A DNA stretch of 64,000 nucleotides from NCBI GenBank assembly GCA_965198225.1, contig CBDAOY010000009.1, forward strand, positions 448,001 through 512,000, written 5' to 3'. The position numbers and the translations under genes are program-made. Under the pieces are notes generated by a model. It was not told the DNA's origin and did not search any database. It saw only the letters and a list, made by a program, of their open reading frames with translations. The number at the start of each line of letters is the position of its first letter. Positions within the stretch are counted from its first letter, which is position 1. Positions 7,132-12,474 of the stretch are shown here, in pieces. This DNA is from Terriglobia bacterium (GTDB taxonomy: Bacteria; Acidobacteriota; Terriglobia; 20CM-2-55-15).

Positions 7132-8754
7132 GGTTATGTTTCAGAGTTTCTGCAAAAAGGTCCTGAAATAGGAAAGGGCCAGGGTATCTCCGAAAAGTTG
7201 GTAACGAATCAACTTTGAAACGAAGGAGATGAACCGATGGCCCGACCTCAGATTAAGCGAAAGGGAGTGGATTGGAAAGAACTGTTAGGAGAGGAAAAGG
7301 ATTTGCTGAAAAGCGTCGTACAGGAGGTGGTTCAAGAGATTCTCGAGGCGGAGATGGACCAGGTCGTGGGCGCGGTCAAGAGTGAACGAACAGGGGGTCG
7401 CACCGGATATCGGAGTGGCTATTACGGACGGGACCTGGTCACACGGGTGGGCAAGCTGGAGTTGCGCGTGCCGCAGGACCGGGCCGGCCGGTTCAGTACG
7501 GAGGTGTTTGAACGCTACCAACGCAGCGAGAAAGCCTTGGTGGCCAGCTTGGCCGAGATGTACGTGCAGGGCGTGTCAACGCGCAAGGTGAAAGCCATCA
7601 CCGAAGAACTATGCGGACATTCGTTTTCGGCCAGCACGATCAGCCGGATTAATCAGACTCTGGACAAGGAGCTGAAAAAGTTTGCAACGCGACGATTGGA
7701 GGAAGAATACCCGTACCTAATTTTGGATGCGCGCTACGAGAAGGTGCGCGAAGACGGGGTCATCCGGAGCCGGGCGGTGCTGGTCGCGATCGGAATCAAC
7801 TGGGACGGCCGGCGCGGTGTGTTGGCGGTGGAGCTGGCGGGACGGGAAAGCACGACCAGTTGGCGGCAACTGCTGCTGAGTTTAAAACAACGCGGCCTGT
7901 GCGGGGTGGAGTTCGTGGTGACCGACGATCATCCGGGGTTGAAGAAAGCCATCGCGGAAGTCCTGACCGAAGCGATCTGGCAGCGCTGCTACGTGCACTT
8001 TCTCCGAAACGCATTGGATTATCTGCCGCGCAAAGGCGATGACGATTGCCTCCAGGAACTGCGTTGGCTCTACGATCGGCGGAACCTCCAGGAAGCGCGG
8101 CAGGACCTCGCGGCGTGGTTGAGCAAGTGGGGGCAGAAATATCCCAAACTCTGCGACTGGGTCGAAGACAACATCGACGAGACGCTGAGCTTCTACACGC
8201 TGCCGCTTCAGCATCACAAGCACATGAAATCCACCAATATGCTGGAACGGCTCAACGAAGAGATCAAGCGGCGAACGCGTGTGGTGCGGATATTCCCCAA
8301 CGCGGCCAGCTGTCTGCGTTTGATTCGGGCACTGACCACCGAGATGCACGAGAACTGGATCGAAGCGATCCGTTATTTGAACATGGATCTGTTGAAGGAA
8401 CACAAGAAGGACTGGCACCGTCAGACGCCTGCCGCGTGAACGCGTCAAAACGGACCGACCCAAGGATCGGCTCGGAAGCCGATCGTCGATTACAGCGCAT
8501 CCTGGAGCGAGGAATCTCTGTGGAAAACTTTCAAAGGGCGAAAGAAAGAGAACCAAAAAAGAAAGAAAGGCAGAGGCCTGATGGAAATGACGCCTCAGAG
8601 GAAATCCGCAACAAGACGCGGATTCCCTCTGAGGCTTGGAAAAGCTTCGCCAAGAACGTTCAGCTTTCCCACATTCCCACAGGCCCGACGGCGATCAACA
8701 CTCAAGAACTGACTTTTTCGGAAATACTTTTTGCAGAACTTGACGCACACAACT
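7132..8754 (+). mobile_element. Complete IS256-family insertion sequence (1623 bp)
   Basis: Imperfect 28-bp TIRs GGTTATGTTTCAGAGTTTCTGCAAAAAG and (rc) AGTTGTGTGCGTCAAGTTCTGCAAAAAG; 8-bp TSD TGATTGTG at 7124-7131 and 8755-8762. Confidence 0.92.
7237..8439 (+). CDS. IS256-family (Mutator-like) DDE transposase
   Basis: 400 aa; LRVPQDR, MYVQGVSTRKV, LDARYEKVR, TDDHPGL, WQRCYVHF, STNMLERLNEEIKRR. Confidence 0.97.
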   Translation: MARPQIKRKGVDWKELLGEEKDLLKSVVQEVVQEILEAEMDQVVGAVKSERTGGRTGYRSGYYGRDLVTRVGKLELRVPQDRAGRFSTEVFERYQRSEKALVASLAEMYVQGVSTRKVKAITEELCGHSFSASTISRINQTLDKELKKFATRRLEEEYPYLILDARYEKVREDGVIRSRAVLVAIGINWDGRRGVLAVELAGRESTTSWRQLLLSLKQRGLCGVEFVVTDDHPGLKKAIAEVLTEAIWQRCYVHFLRNALDYLPRKGDDDCLQELRWLYDRRNLQEARQDLAAWLSKWGQKYPKLCDWVEDNIDETLSFYTLPLQHHKHMKSTNMLERLNEEIKRRTRVVRIFPNAASCLRLIRALTTEMHENWIEAIRYLNMDLLKEHKKDWHRQTPAA

Positions 8755-8853
8755 TGATTGTGCTCGATCCCGACGGAGCTGGGTACCTTTCGGGGATGAC
8801 GACAGCCCGTGCGGACGAGGTGACTCCAGTACGAAACAATTGAATCTCTCGGA

Positions 8854-8875
8854 CCGGCCCCAAGCCGGGCCTTTT
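8854..8875 (+). terminator. Terminator-like hairpin immediately upstream of the group II intron insertion site
   Basis: GGCCC(8856-60)...GGGCC(8867-71) followed by TTTT, 3 nt before the intron's GTGCG; class C introns typically insert after such hairpins. Confidence 0.6.
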
Positions 8876-9314
8876 CAGGTGCGCCGGGCATGGCACGCCA
8901 ACCGAAGGTAGGAAAGCCACCGTGATCGGACGGAAGGCGAACGCCAACAAGGCAAGGGCAGTCTCAGAGATGGGATGTCCGGAGGAAGCATGAGGCAGAA
9001 CTCGTGTACGTAGCGAACAGCGAACCGGCTAGATGGGTGCCCGGAGGGGGGCGAGCAGGCTTGAGAGAGCGAGCCCCGATATTCGATCGGAGTTACCGAA
9101 GGGAGCTGAAGCCGGACGGGATACGAGGAGGGGGCGTGTCTTACCCCGGGAAGCCCTACTGCTTCGATGTCGGGACCCACAGCGGGTGCGCCCGCCCAGG
9201 CGCTCAAAGGACATTGGGTTATCCAGTCCGCCGTGACCTGACGTTCGAAAACCGAGCCGCGAACGGCGATTCCGTAGCGGGCAGGGAGCAGAGGGTGGCA
9301 GATCCATGGATAGT

Positions 9315-10236
9315 GCGTGCCTGGCAGCACGCGTTTCCGGCGGGTTAAAGTCCCGCTCGGCCCGAGGCCACGGGTCGATATCCAACAAGTGGGGGTAATG
9401 CCTCACTGGCCGAAGTGTAGACAGGTAGTGCAGATGCCTAAACGGGCACGAAGGCGAAAGCCGGATACGGCCAAGGCAAAGCTGGAGCCAGCTACGGAAA
9501 CTTTGGAGGGCAGGGCGCCCACCGCGAGGTGGGGTCTGAAGGGCATGAGGAGAACCACCGGGTCGTAATCGACGGGAGCCATCCCGAGGATGAACCGGTC
9601 GGCCAAAGATGGGGAATGGTCGAGCCCGCACTATTGGGGCGAAGGCGCATTGGTTCCACCCCATCGCACCAAGGTGTGTGCGGGCGACACGGTGGAGAAG
9701 AGACGCGAGTGACCCAGGGAGGCCTGGTATCGTCCGAGCGGAAGGTAAGGTCGAGATGATGTGGCACCCGCAGACGAAAGGGCGGGCAACCGAGAAGACA
9801 AACATCGACCTAGAGCCCTGCGCGGTAGGTGCGGATATAAGCGAGAGCGAAATTCCGGCCGACGCGGTGTCAGGAATCGGATCGGGGAATAGTACTCAGG
9901 AACGAGACGGCAAACATAAGGTCTCGGATCGTTGCTTCGAGCAGCGGCGCTGGCGGGTCCAAAAGGCCCGTTGGAGGGGGAAGTCCCCGTACTCAGTCGT
10001 GAATGTGCGAGCGATGGGAAACGCGGAGATATCGTGGAATTGGATAGTTCCCTTAGCGAAAGACCCAAACGCGGTACGAACGAAGCCGCCACCTGCCGCC
10101 ACACAGCGAATTCCGAACGAGGAGCAACTGAGGAAAGCGGCTTGCGGGAAAACCGCACGAGCCGTTTGATTGAGCGGACGGTGGAAGGGCAACTGAGGAG
10201 ATTGAGCCCGACCAGCCCGACCACTTTCGACTCTAC
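9315..10236 (+). ncRNA. ORF-less group II intron nested in domain III of the outer intron
   Basis: 5' GCGTG then CCTGG (9320-24) pairing with CCAGG (9714-18); DIII CGGGGAATAGTAC...GAAGTCCCCG; DV AAAGCGGCTTGCGGGAAAACCGCACGAGCCGTTTG (10134-10168); 3' end TTCGACTCTAC. Alternative 5' end is GTGCG at 9313. Confidence 0.85.
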
Positions 10237-10254
10237 ACTGAGGACTCAGGGCCG

Positions 10255-11871
10255 ATGAAGCCTGGCAACAGTGCGGAGGATAAAACCCTGACGACCGGGA
10301 AACAAAGAGAGGAACGGGCGCCCTGGCAGCAGCCGGAGCAACTGAATCTCTGGGACAACCCGGACGGCCGGAGATCGCCAACCGGCGGTGGGAAGTCATG
10401 GACGAGAGGCGAGAGTGACACCGACAGGGAGTCGACTCAGTGGATGGAGCAAGGGGCCCAGAAAGCCATCGGGGGCGGCGAGTTCCACATGGGCGCCGAG
10501 GCGGAAAACCGCCGCGGTCATCAGCCGTCCGGGTCCGGCGACAACGCCAACCACCCCCGGCCATCCCTGGCGGAAGACAGTCACGGAGGAAGTGAACTGA
10601 AAGTTGTTGGAGTGATGAAACGGGTCTACGACCGGAGGCGACTGGTTCAGGCGTGGCAGCAGGTACGGGCCAACGCCGGAGCCGCCGGGGTGGACAACAT
10701 GACGGTCGAAGCCTTCGGGGAAAGAGAGGATGAATTTCTCTCACTCATCCACGACAAGCTGAAAGCCGGGACATACCGTTTCAAGCCCGCAAAGAGGGTT
10801 CTGATCCCCAAGCCGGGCAGTTCGAAGAAGAGGAAGCTGGGTATTCCCGTCGTGATGGACCGTGTGGTCAGTCAGAGTCTCCATGCTGTGTTGACGGAAA
10901 TCTTTGAGCCGGACTTCAGCGGGTCCAACTTCGGGTTTCGGCGTGGTAAGAGCCAACACCAGGCCATTCGCCATGTGCGGGAAGCCGTGATGGAGGGCTA
11001 TGAGTGGTGTGCATCCCTCGACATCCAGAGCTTCTTCGATGAGATCCCCCACAACCTGATCCTCAAGCTCATTCGACAGAGAATCCGAGATGAGCGGCTC
11101 GTTACGTTGATCGTGCGGGTGCTGAAGGCAGGAGTTGCTGTGGATGGTGTTATCGAGAAGACGGATCAGGGATGTCCCCAAGGCTCCCCGGTCTCGCCGG
11201 TCCTGTCCAACATCGTGCTCAATGAGCTCGACCAGGAACTGGAACGGCGGGGACACCGGTTCAGCCGGTGGGCCGATGATTTCGTCATCCTGTTGCGAAC
11301 GGAGCGGGCGGCTCTACGGGTGATGGAAGGTATCACACGATTCCTCGAAGAGGAACTCGGACTGCGCGTCAACCGGGACAAGAGCCGCGTGGCCCCGATC
11401 AAGGATGTGGAGTTCTTAGGATTCCAGATCCTGCGGGGTCAGATTCGGGTGAGTACGCGGGCGCGGAAGCGCTTCGTGCAAGAGGTCCGATCCCGGACAC
11501 GGCGGAATAACGGGCTATCGATGCACCAGGTCATTGGCGAACTCAACGAATATCTTGAAGGATGGGTCGGGTATTACCGCATCCAGGAGTTCCGGAAGAT
11601 CTTCCAAGAGCTAGATGGATTCATCCGTAGTCGGCTCCGGTCCATGCAGTTGAAGAAGTGGAAGAAGCCGGCGAAGTTCCAGCGGATGATGATTCGCGCC
11701 GGCGCCCCGGTGTATTACGCCCGCCGAACCTGGGTGCGGATGAAGGCGTGGCAATCCGTCATGCGGCGGGAGGTCCGTTTCGTCCTGAGCCTGGAGTGGT
11801 TTCGGAGCCAGGGACTCGTCTTTCTCCACGACTTCGCGCAGCGGAATCTCAAACTGGAGTTTGCTCGCTGA
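10255..11871 (+). CDS. Group II intron reverse transcriptase/maturase without an endonuclease domain (true start probably downstream of 10255)
   Basis: AWQQVRANAGAAGVD, IPKPG..RKLGIP..DR, NFGFR, GCPQGSPVSPVLSNIVL, RWADD, LRVNRDKS; X domain GWVGYY; no HNH. Confidence 0.95.
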   Translation: MKPGNSAEDKTLTTGKQREERAPWQQPEQLNLWDNPDGRRSPTGGGKSWTRGESDTDRESTQWMEQGAQKAIGGGEFHMGAEAENRRGHQPSGSGDNANHPRPSLAEDSHGGSELKVVGVMKRVYDRRRLVQAWQQVRANAGAAGVDNMTVEAFGEREDEFLSLIHDKLKAGTYRFKPAKRVLIPKPGSSKKRKLGIPVVMDRVVSQSLHAVLTEIFEPDFSGSNFGFRRGKSQHQAIRHVREAVMEGYEWCASLDIQSFFDEIPHNLILKLIRQRIRDERLVTLIVRVLKAGVAVDGVIEKTDQGCPQGSPVSPVLSNIVLNELDQELERRGHRFSRWADDFVILLRTERAALRVMEGITRFLEEELGLRVNRDKSRVAPIKDVEFLGFQILRGQIRVSTRARKRFVQEVRSRTRRNNGLSMHQVIGELNEYLEGWVGYYRIQEFRKIFQELDGFIRSRLRSMQLKKWKKPAKFQRMMIRAGAPVYYARRTWVRMKAWQSVMRREVRFVLSLEWFRSQGLVFLHDFAQRNLKLEFAR

Positions 11872-12045
11872 TCGAAGAGCGGCTTACCTGGCCGGTACGA
11901 GCCGTTCTGTCCGGAGGGGGTGAGGGTCACTTCACCTCCTACCGGGATTTGGACCTGACCGCAGTACAATTCCGACACTCTCACAGCGCAATCGCCATGC
12001 GACCGAAGCGGTCCATGCGGCAGGTGGAGTCGTGAAAGATTACCG

Positions 12046-12474
12046 ATGAGGAACGTCAAGCAACTTTTGGACGTGAAGGGATCGACGGTGTGGTCGATCG
12101 AACCGGAGGCTTCCGTGTTCGAAGCCATCAAGCTGATGGCTGAGAAAGAAATCGGGGCCGTGTTGGTCGTGAAAGACCACCACCCCGTTGGCATGCTGTC
12201 GGAACGGGATTATGCCCGTAAGATCATCCTCGAAGGCAAGTCCTCGCGCGACACACCGGTTGCCGACATCATGTCGAGCCCCGTGATCTACGCGAAGCCC
12301 AAACAGACCATCAGGGAATGCATGGCGGTGATGACCGATCGACGCTGCCGCCACCTGCCGGTCCTTGACGGCGAACAACTTGTCGGGATGATAAGCATCA
12401 ACGATCTCGTGCGTGACATCATCGCCGACCAGCAGTTCCAGATCACGCAACTGGAGAGTTACATCAGCAGCTAG
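12046..12474 (+). CDS. CBS-domain pair protein
   Basis: SVFEAIKLMAEKEIGAVLV...GMLSERDYARKI...MTDRRCRHLPV. Confidence 0.92.
   Translation: MRNVKQLLDVKGSTVWSIEPEASVFEAIKLMAEKEIGAVLVVKDHHPVGMLSERDYARKIILEGKSSRDTPVADIMSSPVIYAKPKQTIRECMAVMTDRRCRHLPVLDGEQLVGMISINDLVRDIIADQQFQITQLESYISS

Follow-up and report, generated by a model that had tools for sequence, protein, structure and literature searches.

Two nested group II introns in a Terriglobia contig

The DNA analysed here, referred to throughout as the window, is a stretch of 64,000 nucleotides (nt) from contig CBDAOY010000009.1 of a Terriglobia bacterium, and positions are counted from its first letter. At 8879-11948 on its forward strand lies a class C-like group II intron that encodes a reverse transcriptase (RT) and is interrupted at 9314/9315 by a second group II intron without an open reading frame (ORF), which is 922 nt long, occupies 9315-10236 on the same strand and reads GCGUG...CUCUAC. 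An earlier note, made from the sequence alone, had called this arrangement a twintron, and our analysis agrees with it: the inner element has exact ends that can be set independently of any structure, it carries the hallmarks of a group II ribozyme, and the whole constitutes a complete intron within an intron, the removal of which restores the outer one.

The outer intron begins with GUGCG at 8879, where a 5' end with a closing domain I stem had been predicted. The core of its domain I (8961-9139) matches the Rfam model group-II-D1D4-3 (RF02001) over the full model (1-170) with 67 bits (E = 3.3e-11, gathering score 32), which is the sole Rfam match at gathering score in the window, and its domains II and III are long (about 150 and 178 nt). 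A 418-amino-acid (aa) RT/maturase is encoded from the ATG at 10615 to 11871 on the forward strand; homology begins at this ATG, and the open frame extends back to 10255 through a 5' stretch without a family match. According to Pfam, the protein contains RVT_1 (1.7e-34) and GIIM (4.1e-19) and no endonuclease (En) domain. Folding places domain V (DV, 33 nt) at 11876-11908 and domain VI (DVI) at 11910-11946, with a bulged A at 11941, the eighth nt from the 3' end (DV/DVI fold, z = -4.2), so that the complete 3' end anticipated at about 11876-11948 has the canonical fold. The intron ends in GGGAU at 11948, where homology between its two copies in this genome (G000; 6.4 Mb in 9 contigs, among them C4, C5, C6 and C8, which are named below) stops. 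The second copy (C6:342076-346377, minus strand) is 99.7% identical across both arms, and the RT ORF is intact in both.

Among solved RT structures, the only ones used for the class comparison, that of GsI-IIC is the best match to the outer RT (306.8 bits over the full length, 1.7e-90), followed by entry 7uim, a group II RT/maturase of 427 aa (250.5 bits), with LtrA (125 bits) and the CL-type maturase RT of entry 6me0 (107 bits) far behind. The 5' exon (8851-8878) consists of a short GC hairpin (8851-8871) and UUUUCAG. The terminator-like hairpin that the earlier note described is therefore present, although it is energetically weak and no better than its shuffled versions (z = -0.12). The second outer copy is preceded by a perfect 10-bp hairpin and CUCUA, unrelated to the hairpin in the window, and the two copies start 7 nt (window) and 5 nt (second copy) after their hairpins. 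The absence of an En domain, the kinship with GsI-IIC and the hairpin context support, as far as tested, the class C-like assignment made earlier, and we keep to the term 'class C-like' because no solved RT is available for class D, E or F.

The inner intron likewise ends in a canonical fold within the predicted 10134-10236, with DV at 10135-10167 (AGC triad at 10136-10138 and a 2-nt bulge), DVI at 10172-10233, a bulged A at 10230, the seventh nt from the 3' end at 10236, and a fold z of -3.5. Its 5' ribozyme was aligned with nine relatives from other assemblies, whose RTs are 53-94% identical (alignment A1) and whose metagenome-assembled genomes (MAGs) are labelled Terriglobia, delta proteobacterium, Desulfobacterales, Alphaproteobacteria, Geminicoccaceae and Nitrospinota; at 94%, RTs from a Terriglobia MAG are the nearest. 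RNAalifold found 203 pairs in A1, 58 of them with compensatory changes on both sides, and the consensus shows five unpaired 5' nt, a closed domain I, and then domains II and III in canonical order. The closing helix of domain I, which ends at 9718, is supported by covariation, in agreement with the earlier placement of a 5' end with such a stem at 9315. For the 3' part, to which a relative from an NC10 MAG was added, the DV/DVI consensus comprises 29 pairs, of which 4 show compensatory changes, and all 11 sequences share the bulged A. The relatives begin with GUGUG or GUGCG where the window has GCGUG, and at 68 metagenome junctions the 5' ends are GUGUG in 60, GUGCG in 4 and GCGUG in 4. Judged from these aligned ends, the inner 5' end in the window is a U2C variant of the canonical GUGYG.

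Exact ends, empty sites and a natural ORF deletion

Searching the genome with 8850-11960 gave 37 matches, and with 9315-10236 as query 10 of 33 BLAST rows spanned inner positions 1-922 exactly, representing ten full-length copies with identical ends. Identity among inner copies is 96-100%, and several different hosts carry them. The element starts with GCGUGCCUGG in all 20 junctions listed, 18 of which follow TAGT while the other two follow TAAT and TGGC; copies with an intact 3' end all finish in CGACUCUAC, and the downstream flanks begin with A. Empty sites, at which the flanks are directly adjacent, occur in 7 of the 8 copies of one host family, with flanks 100% identical, and three relatives in a second host family are likewise uninterrupted. 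What separates a filled allele from an empty one in the same host is exactly the inner element. Moreover, the element has invaded itself: copies are split at inner position 579/580, which corresponds to 9893/9894 in the window (AAUAGU|ACUCAGG, 9888-9900), and the window copy retains this self site, AAUAGU|A at 9888-9894, uninterrupted. Full nested self-copies lie at C6:840163-841975, C8:158737-160383 and C5:62160-64012, and a partial one at C4:150750-152235.

The ends at 9315 and 10236 are fixed because the termini of the copies, the empty sites and the uninterrupted self site all define them. A true 5' end two nt upstream, at which the sequence would read GUGCGUG, was considered and rejected: shifting both ends never recreates the uninterrupted self site, TAAT and TGGC precede the element in two copies, and the GUGYG of the relatives aligns with GCGUG.

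At three loci, 1,251 extra nt are found between inner positions 795 and 796, the equivalent of 10109-10110 in domain IV of the window copy. Such full-length forms are 2,154 nt long (C5:501714-503866 and C6:343788-345941) and encode a 415-aa RT/maturase of their own, with a TTG start, RVT_1 (2.1e-33) and GIIM (1.2e-19); the ORF is intact at C5:501825-503069 and C6:343899-345143 and broken in the third copy. That the 1,251 nt might be a third inserted element was dismissed, as their translation shows the intron's own RT ORF. By this comparison, the inner element of the window derives from a 2,154-nt RT-encoding intron by a natural loss of its ORF. The earlier statement that it has no RT holds, for no Pfam family reaches its cut-off in the ORFs of the 922-nt element, and the 415-aa RT/maturase of its siblings, to go by the analysis of these copies, is likely to act as its maturase in trans. 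The inner and outer RTs are 39% identical, and the inner RT ranks the solved RTs in the same order as the outer one, with lower scores, the closest again being class IIC RTs. Both proteins (10615-11871 in the window and L002:3328-4572, minus strand) read RWADDFV at the polymerase active-site motif; the usual motif has Y where these RTs have W. WADDFVVV was also a search word for RT relatives, and at least some of the relatives found share it.

The ORF-less form has 18 extra nt in the loop of DVI (region 10190-10207 of the window) that full-length copies do not have, and a form without them is present in one contig of RNA run X16. The two sister outer introns carry different inner forms, ORF-less in the window and full length on C6, which would fit separate invasions or conversion between inner copies.

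Insertion into the base of domain III

With 9315-10236 removed, J2/3 is rejoined to ATAGTAC, as had been predicted, and the base of the outer domain III can form. The strand UCCAUGG (9303-9309) then pairs with UCAUGGA (10396-10402) around an internal loop AUAGUA/GGGAAG, of which AUAGU (9310-9314) completes the 5' half of the base (9303-9314), the final A stands at 10237 and GGGAAG occupies 10390-10395. The remainder of the domain (10237-10402) comprises this loop A, distal helices and the 3' strands (10390-10402), and the AGA directly before the basal-helix strand (9300-9302) is likely J2/3. The restored layout is that of the consensus domain III of the inner lineage itself, in which a six-pair basal helix carries an internal loop AUAGUA/GGAAG followed by distal helices; in the window's inner intron, this domain lies at 9879-9993, with a basal stem CGGGGA/UCCCCG and loops AUAGUA/GGAAG. 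The earlier note had placed the insertion in domain III, and more exactly the element enters the internal loop that follows the basal helix, on its 5' strand and some 13 nt past J2/3, between the U and the final A of that strand. The AGUA/GAA arrangement within the loop may be of the loop E, or sarcin-ricin-like, kind.

The same position is entered in other hosts. Eighteen independent sites were compared, namely nine contexts in this genome and nine in MAGs. The stem sequence in the 7 nt before RUAGU differs among the 18 contexts, and in 7 of the 18 hosts all 7 of these nt pair with a segment further downstream that follows AAG. The host pattern would thus be one of a conserved loop on a covarying helix, as expected of domain III. 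Invaded elements in this genome have Rfam D1D4-6, D1D4-2 or D1D4-3 matches just upstream of the insertion. At 12 loci in named MAGs, D1D4-2, -3, -4 or -6 matches lie directly upstream in six and the host's DV/DVI (RF00029) directly downstream in a seventh. Of the metagenome loci, 20 extended far enough upstream, and D1D4-3, -4 or -6 directly precedes the insertion on the same strand in 11 of them. The site lies neither in domain IV nor in the RT ORF of a related intron, and the hosts belong to several D1D4 families.

These data also bear on whether the assembly misplaced the inner element, a multi-copy repeat, inside the outer intron. In two public sequencing runs its words sum to a depth some 5-10 times that of the flanks, as befits a high-copy repeat, and among the contigs listed from the public runs none bridges 9314/9315 with at least 31 letters on each side. 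Yet the same outer/inner junctions recur at the second locus on C6 with the full-length inner form, the insertion falls at the exact lineage-wide motif, its removal restores a canonical domain III, and in another assembly a Terriglobia MAG (L022) has an inner relative followed by a near-identical outer-type 3' flank. We consider a misassembly barely credible.

Several host loci have structures of their own. At C5:889958-890863 and C4:150750-152235, an inner copy links a 5' flank of the D1D4-2 type to the 3' flank that belongs to a D1D4-6 host, and the stem strands of this chimeric host pair 5/7, against 7/7 for the true partner. From its sequence, the chimera looks like the product of homologous recombination between inner copies that sat in different hosts, which would be a route to genome rearrangement. 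The D1D4-6 host ('type A') starts within about 16 nt of the DV/DVI of an upstream RT-encoding intron, with no obvious GUGYG between the two (C6:839700-839830, C5:812405-812535, and, on the minus strand, C5:606850-606980 and C5:760105-760235), and at some type A loci three intron types abut or are nested. Type A could have entered just past the DVI hairpin of that upstream intron.

A lineage-wide target and its probable recognition

All 18 independent sites conform to RUA(G/A)U|A at -5 to +1, with G at -2 in all but one, and further upstream they share C at -16 (18/18), G at -14 (15/18) and A at -13 (15/18). Joint Genome Institute (JGI) metagenome contigs were scanned with intron positions 1-40 only, a restriction that guards against circularity. 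The scan gave at least 120 stretches, from which 80 loci were examined; 76 had 26 nt upstream, making 68 distinct flanks. Among the flanks listed, TAGT closes 47 of 68 and the rest are mostly one letter off; C stands at -16 in 57, G at -14 in 57 and A at -13 in 50.

The putative exon-binding site 1 (EBS1) of the inner intron is ACUAUU (9630-9635), in a hairpin loop late in domain I. Its ACUAU (9630-9634) is invariant in 10 of 10 aligned relatives and complementary to AUAGU (9310-9314), the corresponding intron-binding site 1 (IBS1). A simple motif search paired EBS1 with its target at 53 loci, 33 of them distinct, after 21 further loci without a match had been dropped; in these 33, the combination of the nt following ACUAU with target position -6 is G-C in 28, C-G in 1, G.U in 2 and G.G in 2. 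Rare compensatory combinations also occur (AAUAU with AUAUU, ACUAG with CUGGU). The loop ACUAUU of this genome pairs perfectly with its own AAUAGU, which would fit the many self-invasions here. At the same site (A1 columns 587-592, window 9888-9893), AUAGU is kept by the window copy and by the Terriglobia and delta/Desulfobacterales members, and other members of the lineage have GAGGU, GCGGU, ACGGU or AUAUU in their own domain III; the latter would be spared self-invasion.

Two further modes of recognition were considered and set aside. An IBS2 at -7 to -12 would fall on the variable basal helix of domain III, which differs among hosts of near-identical copies, and a classical IBS2 there appears unlikely. 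Hairpin-guided targeting of the class IIC kind was rejected for the inner intron, as no consistent upstream hairpin was seen by eye in the 18 flanks.

A recurrent target could also result from duplication or recombination of one composite repeat at the DNA level, with no site-specific retrohoming involved. One host type is indeed occupied in all of its 6-7 copies, with flanks 100% identical, and at least one host is a recombinant chimera whose two flanks do not pair with each other. Such copying would not explain why the 18 independent and the 68 metagenome flanks differ throughout except at the motif positions, why the hosts come from four different Rfam D1D4 families, why empty and filled alleles differ by exactly the inner element, or why EBS1 covaries with the target. 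We therefore regard duplication of a single repeat as most improbable, and site-specific insertion as the better account of the recurrent target.

A proposed model and the evidence on both sides

The reading that we favour, with a probability of roughly 0.85, is that the region is a genuine group II twintron whose inner member is an ORF-deleted invader homing to the base of domain III of group II introns. The outer element would be an endonuclease-less, class C-like retroelement that landed just past a hairpin, and the inner one an ORF-deleted copy of a second group II intron that is unrelated to it in detail. The homing site of the inner lineage would be the DNA that encodes the domain III base of other group II introns. 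Recognition may proceed through a 5-6 nt pairing of EBS1 (ACUAU plus one nt) with the loop (N)RUAGU, through the A at +1, and through some reading, by RNA or by protein, of J2/3 and its surroundings at -13 to -18 (G-U-C-N-G-A). The RUAGU motif is constrained in many intron classes and in the invader itself, and it would therefore offer harmless, multi-copy targets and give rise to nested arrays.

Because the 922-nt insert would part the two strands of the outer domain III loop, with the inner EBS1 pairing with one of them, we infer that splicing is ordered, the outer domain III forming only once the inner intron has left. For its splicing and mobility, the ORF-less copy would rely on the 415-aa RT/maturase supplied by its full-length siblings, and the copies may be active at present.

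A number of observations weigh against this model. The inner 5' end is GCGUG and not GUGYG, and the U2C change is common to all copies in this genome. The inner intron stays below the Rfam gathering score, with 24.5 bits for RF02001 at 9518-9625 (cut-off 32, E = 0.041) and 15 bits for RF02003 (cut-off 49), and RF00029 misses both DVs of the window, the outer one included, even at E <= 10; one sister inner copy scores 33.4 bits with RF00029 (cut-off 40). The earlier note had expected two nested Infernal matches, and this expectation failed, RF02001 on the outer intron being the only one at gathering score. The case for the inner intron rests on folds and covariation for that reason. An empty outer site is absent from this genome, both outer copies being occupied, and the host intron has no Rfam match at 9 of the 20 metagenome loci and 5 of the 12 MAG loci. 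Further, 21 of the 68 metagenome flanks do not end in TAGT, EBS1 and IBS1 are mismatched in some pairs (ACGAU with AUAGU, AUUAU with GUAUU), and 5 of the 9 host contexts in this genome have C at -6 facing the U of ACUAUU.

To these can be added the outcome of aligning Logan contigs of four public runs to 8700-12100, in which direct signs of splicing were seen for neither intron among the assembled contigs. A joint 9314->10237, skipping exactly 922 nt, occurs in one contig each of X16, an RNA library (depth 3.85), and X1, a run of unknown kind (depth 46.9). The shorter sides of these joints (28 and 30 letters, respectively) are at or below the length that calls for caution, and the X16 contig is a variant with several other letters changed and a 56-nt skip. 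Since the X16 contig is a variant and the same joint occurs in a run of unknown kind, both contigs are best read as DNA in which a relative of the outer intron has stayed uninvaded, and not as spliced RNA. Loose ends at 10109 in X1 and X6 continue into the RT ORF, and others before 9309/9310 read into two other host types, both of which fit the family of inner copies. The inner intron is deeper than the outer in X15 and X16, which are RNA libraries; because such libraries may hold DNA, we do not claim transcription or splicing from this depth. Both X15 and X16 carry a sponge metagenome label, and about 30% of the sampled words of the stretch are found in them.

The most serious competitor accepts the insertion as real retrohoming and holds that the twintron is a 'zombie', which no longer splices because of its U2C end or for want of a maturase, and whose outer intron is consequently dead. 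The non-canonical GCGUG in all copies of this genome, the absence of an RT in cis, the truncated, rearranged or recombinant state of many inner copies in this genome and the fact that spliced RNA of this exact copy was not seen among the contigs would all agree with it. On the other hand, the catalytic hallmarks are all intact, and copies 96-100% identical in several hosts, with the same GCGUG end, argue for recent activity. The genome retains two unbroken RT genes of the inner intron, neither outer copy has lost its RT ORF, and outer introns 99.7% identical to each other carry different inner forms, as fits separate recent invasions. We judge the loss of splicing to be rather unlikely, and prefer a twintron that can still be spliced.

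Genomic setting

The genome is unusually rich in group II introns, with 24 matches to RF00029 over the cut-off and 32 at E <= 0.001, which exclude the two introns of the window and most copies of the inner family; tblastn with both RTs located some 30 RT loci of several kinds. A gene for a 400-aa Mutator-family (IS256-like) transposase (7237-8439; PF00872, 2.6e-147) precedes the twintron by about 440 nt on the forward strand. A long, near-perfect inverted repeat at 8585-8642 could be a terminator or the end of an insertion sequence; its sub-threshold matches to Rfam microRNA families are due to chance in a bacterium. Downstream by 98 nt and on the same strand, a 142-aa protein with two CBS domains is encoded at 12046-12474, and read-through from the intron region into this gene is conceivable.

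Comparison with known systems and implications

Twintrons in bacteria and introns homing into introns are already known, the described targets being domain IV or the ORF, or else single accidents. In Thermosynechococcus elongatus, ORF-less TeI3 introns (family F3) lie inside TeI4 introns (family F1), and trans mobilisation of ORF-less introns was demonstrated by experiment (Mohr, Ghanem & Lambowitz 2010, PMC2882425). ORF-less derivatives outnumber full-length copies there and are mobilised in trans; the present system is alike in the first respect and, we infer, in the second. The inner and outer introns of T. elongatus are, in the same account, close relatives of one class, whereas here the target is a domain III core loop, the hosts span several D1D4 families and the two RTs are only 39% identical. 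Methanosarcina acetivorans shows repeated site-specific homing into group II introns with multi-level nested arrays, as well as loss by recombination and a 'perpetual homing site' (summarised in Zimmerly & Semper 2015, PMC4424553); going by the title of Dai & Zimmerly 2003, the targets are the ORFs of related introns. The target considered here is instead an RNA-structural motif of domain III, the lineage's own included, and is used across bacterial phyla. The Trichodesmium erythraeum twintron resembles ours in being bacterial and in having its inner intron in a ribozyme domain (domain I) and not in domain IV, and sequential splicing was demonstrated (Pfreundt & Hess 2015, PMC4649490). It is a single case within a protein-coding gene in which both introns have an intron-encoded protein, and a preference of a whole lineage for some motif of other introns is not reported there. 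In plant mitochondria, one intron is described as having entered its own domain IV.

Class C introns insert a few nt past hairpins (Robart, Seo & Zimmerly 2007, as summarised in PMC4424553). The outer intron resembles them in its RT without En, in its nearest solved RTs and in the position of its copies past hairpins. The inner intron shares with them the closest solved RTs, a short IBS1 and the lack of a conserved IBS2 at -7 to -12, and it differs in that its site is defined by sequence and lies inside introns, not after terminators or attC sites. In the full-text literature, we found no lineage homing to a domain III core motif common to several intron classes, a search whose scope did not extend to Simon et al. 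2008, the intron database or supplements, and the novelty of domain III homing is accordingly provisional.

Beyond the locus itself, the data raise a wider proposal: that a widespread endonuclease-less lineage is a specialised parasite of group II introns, homing to J2/3 and RUAGU|A in at least four ribozyme families and several phyla, and that the invaded introns depend on its splicing. We hold this proposal to be evenly poised. If true, it would describe hyperparasitism among retroelements, in which an RNA motif frozen by its function serves a mobile element of the same kind as an inexhaustible safe site, and it would explain how dozens of introns can pile up without damage to genes. Host introns could not easily mutate the motif, hence the broad host range and the self-invasion. 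The lineage would also offer a natural system for target choice that depends on a short IBS1 and is independent of EBS2, and annotators should be warned that finders expecting contiguous domains I-VI miss outer introns of this kind. Finally, it would impose an obligatory splicing hierarchy, in which the maturase of one intron gates the ribozyme of another.

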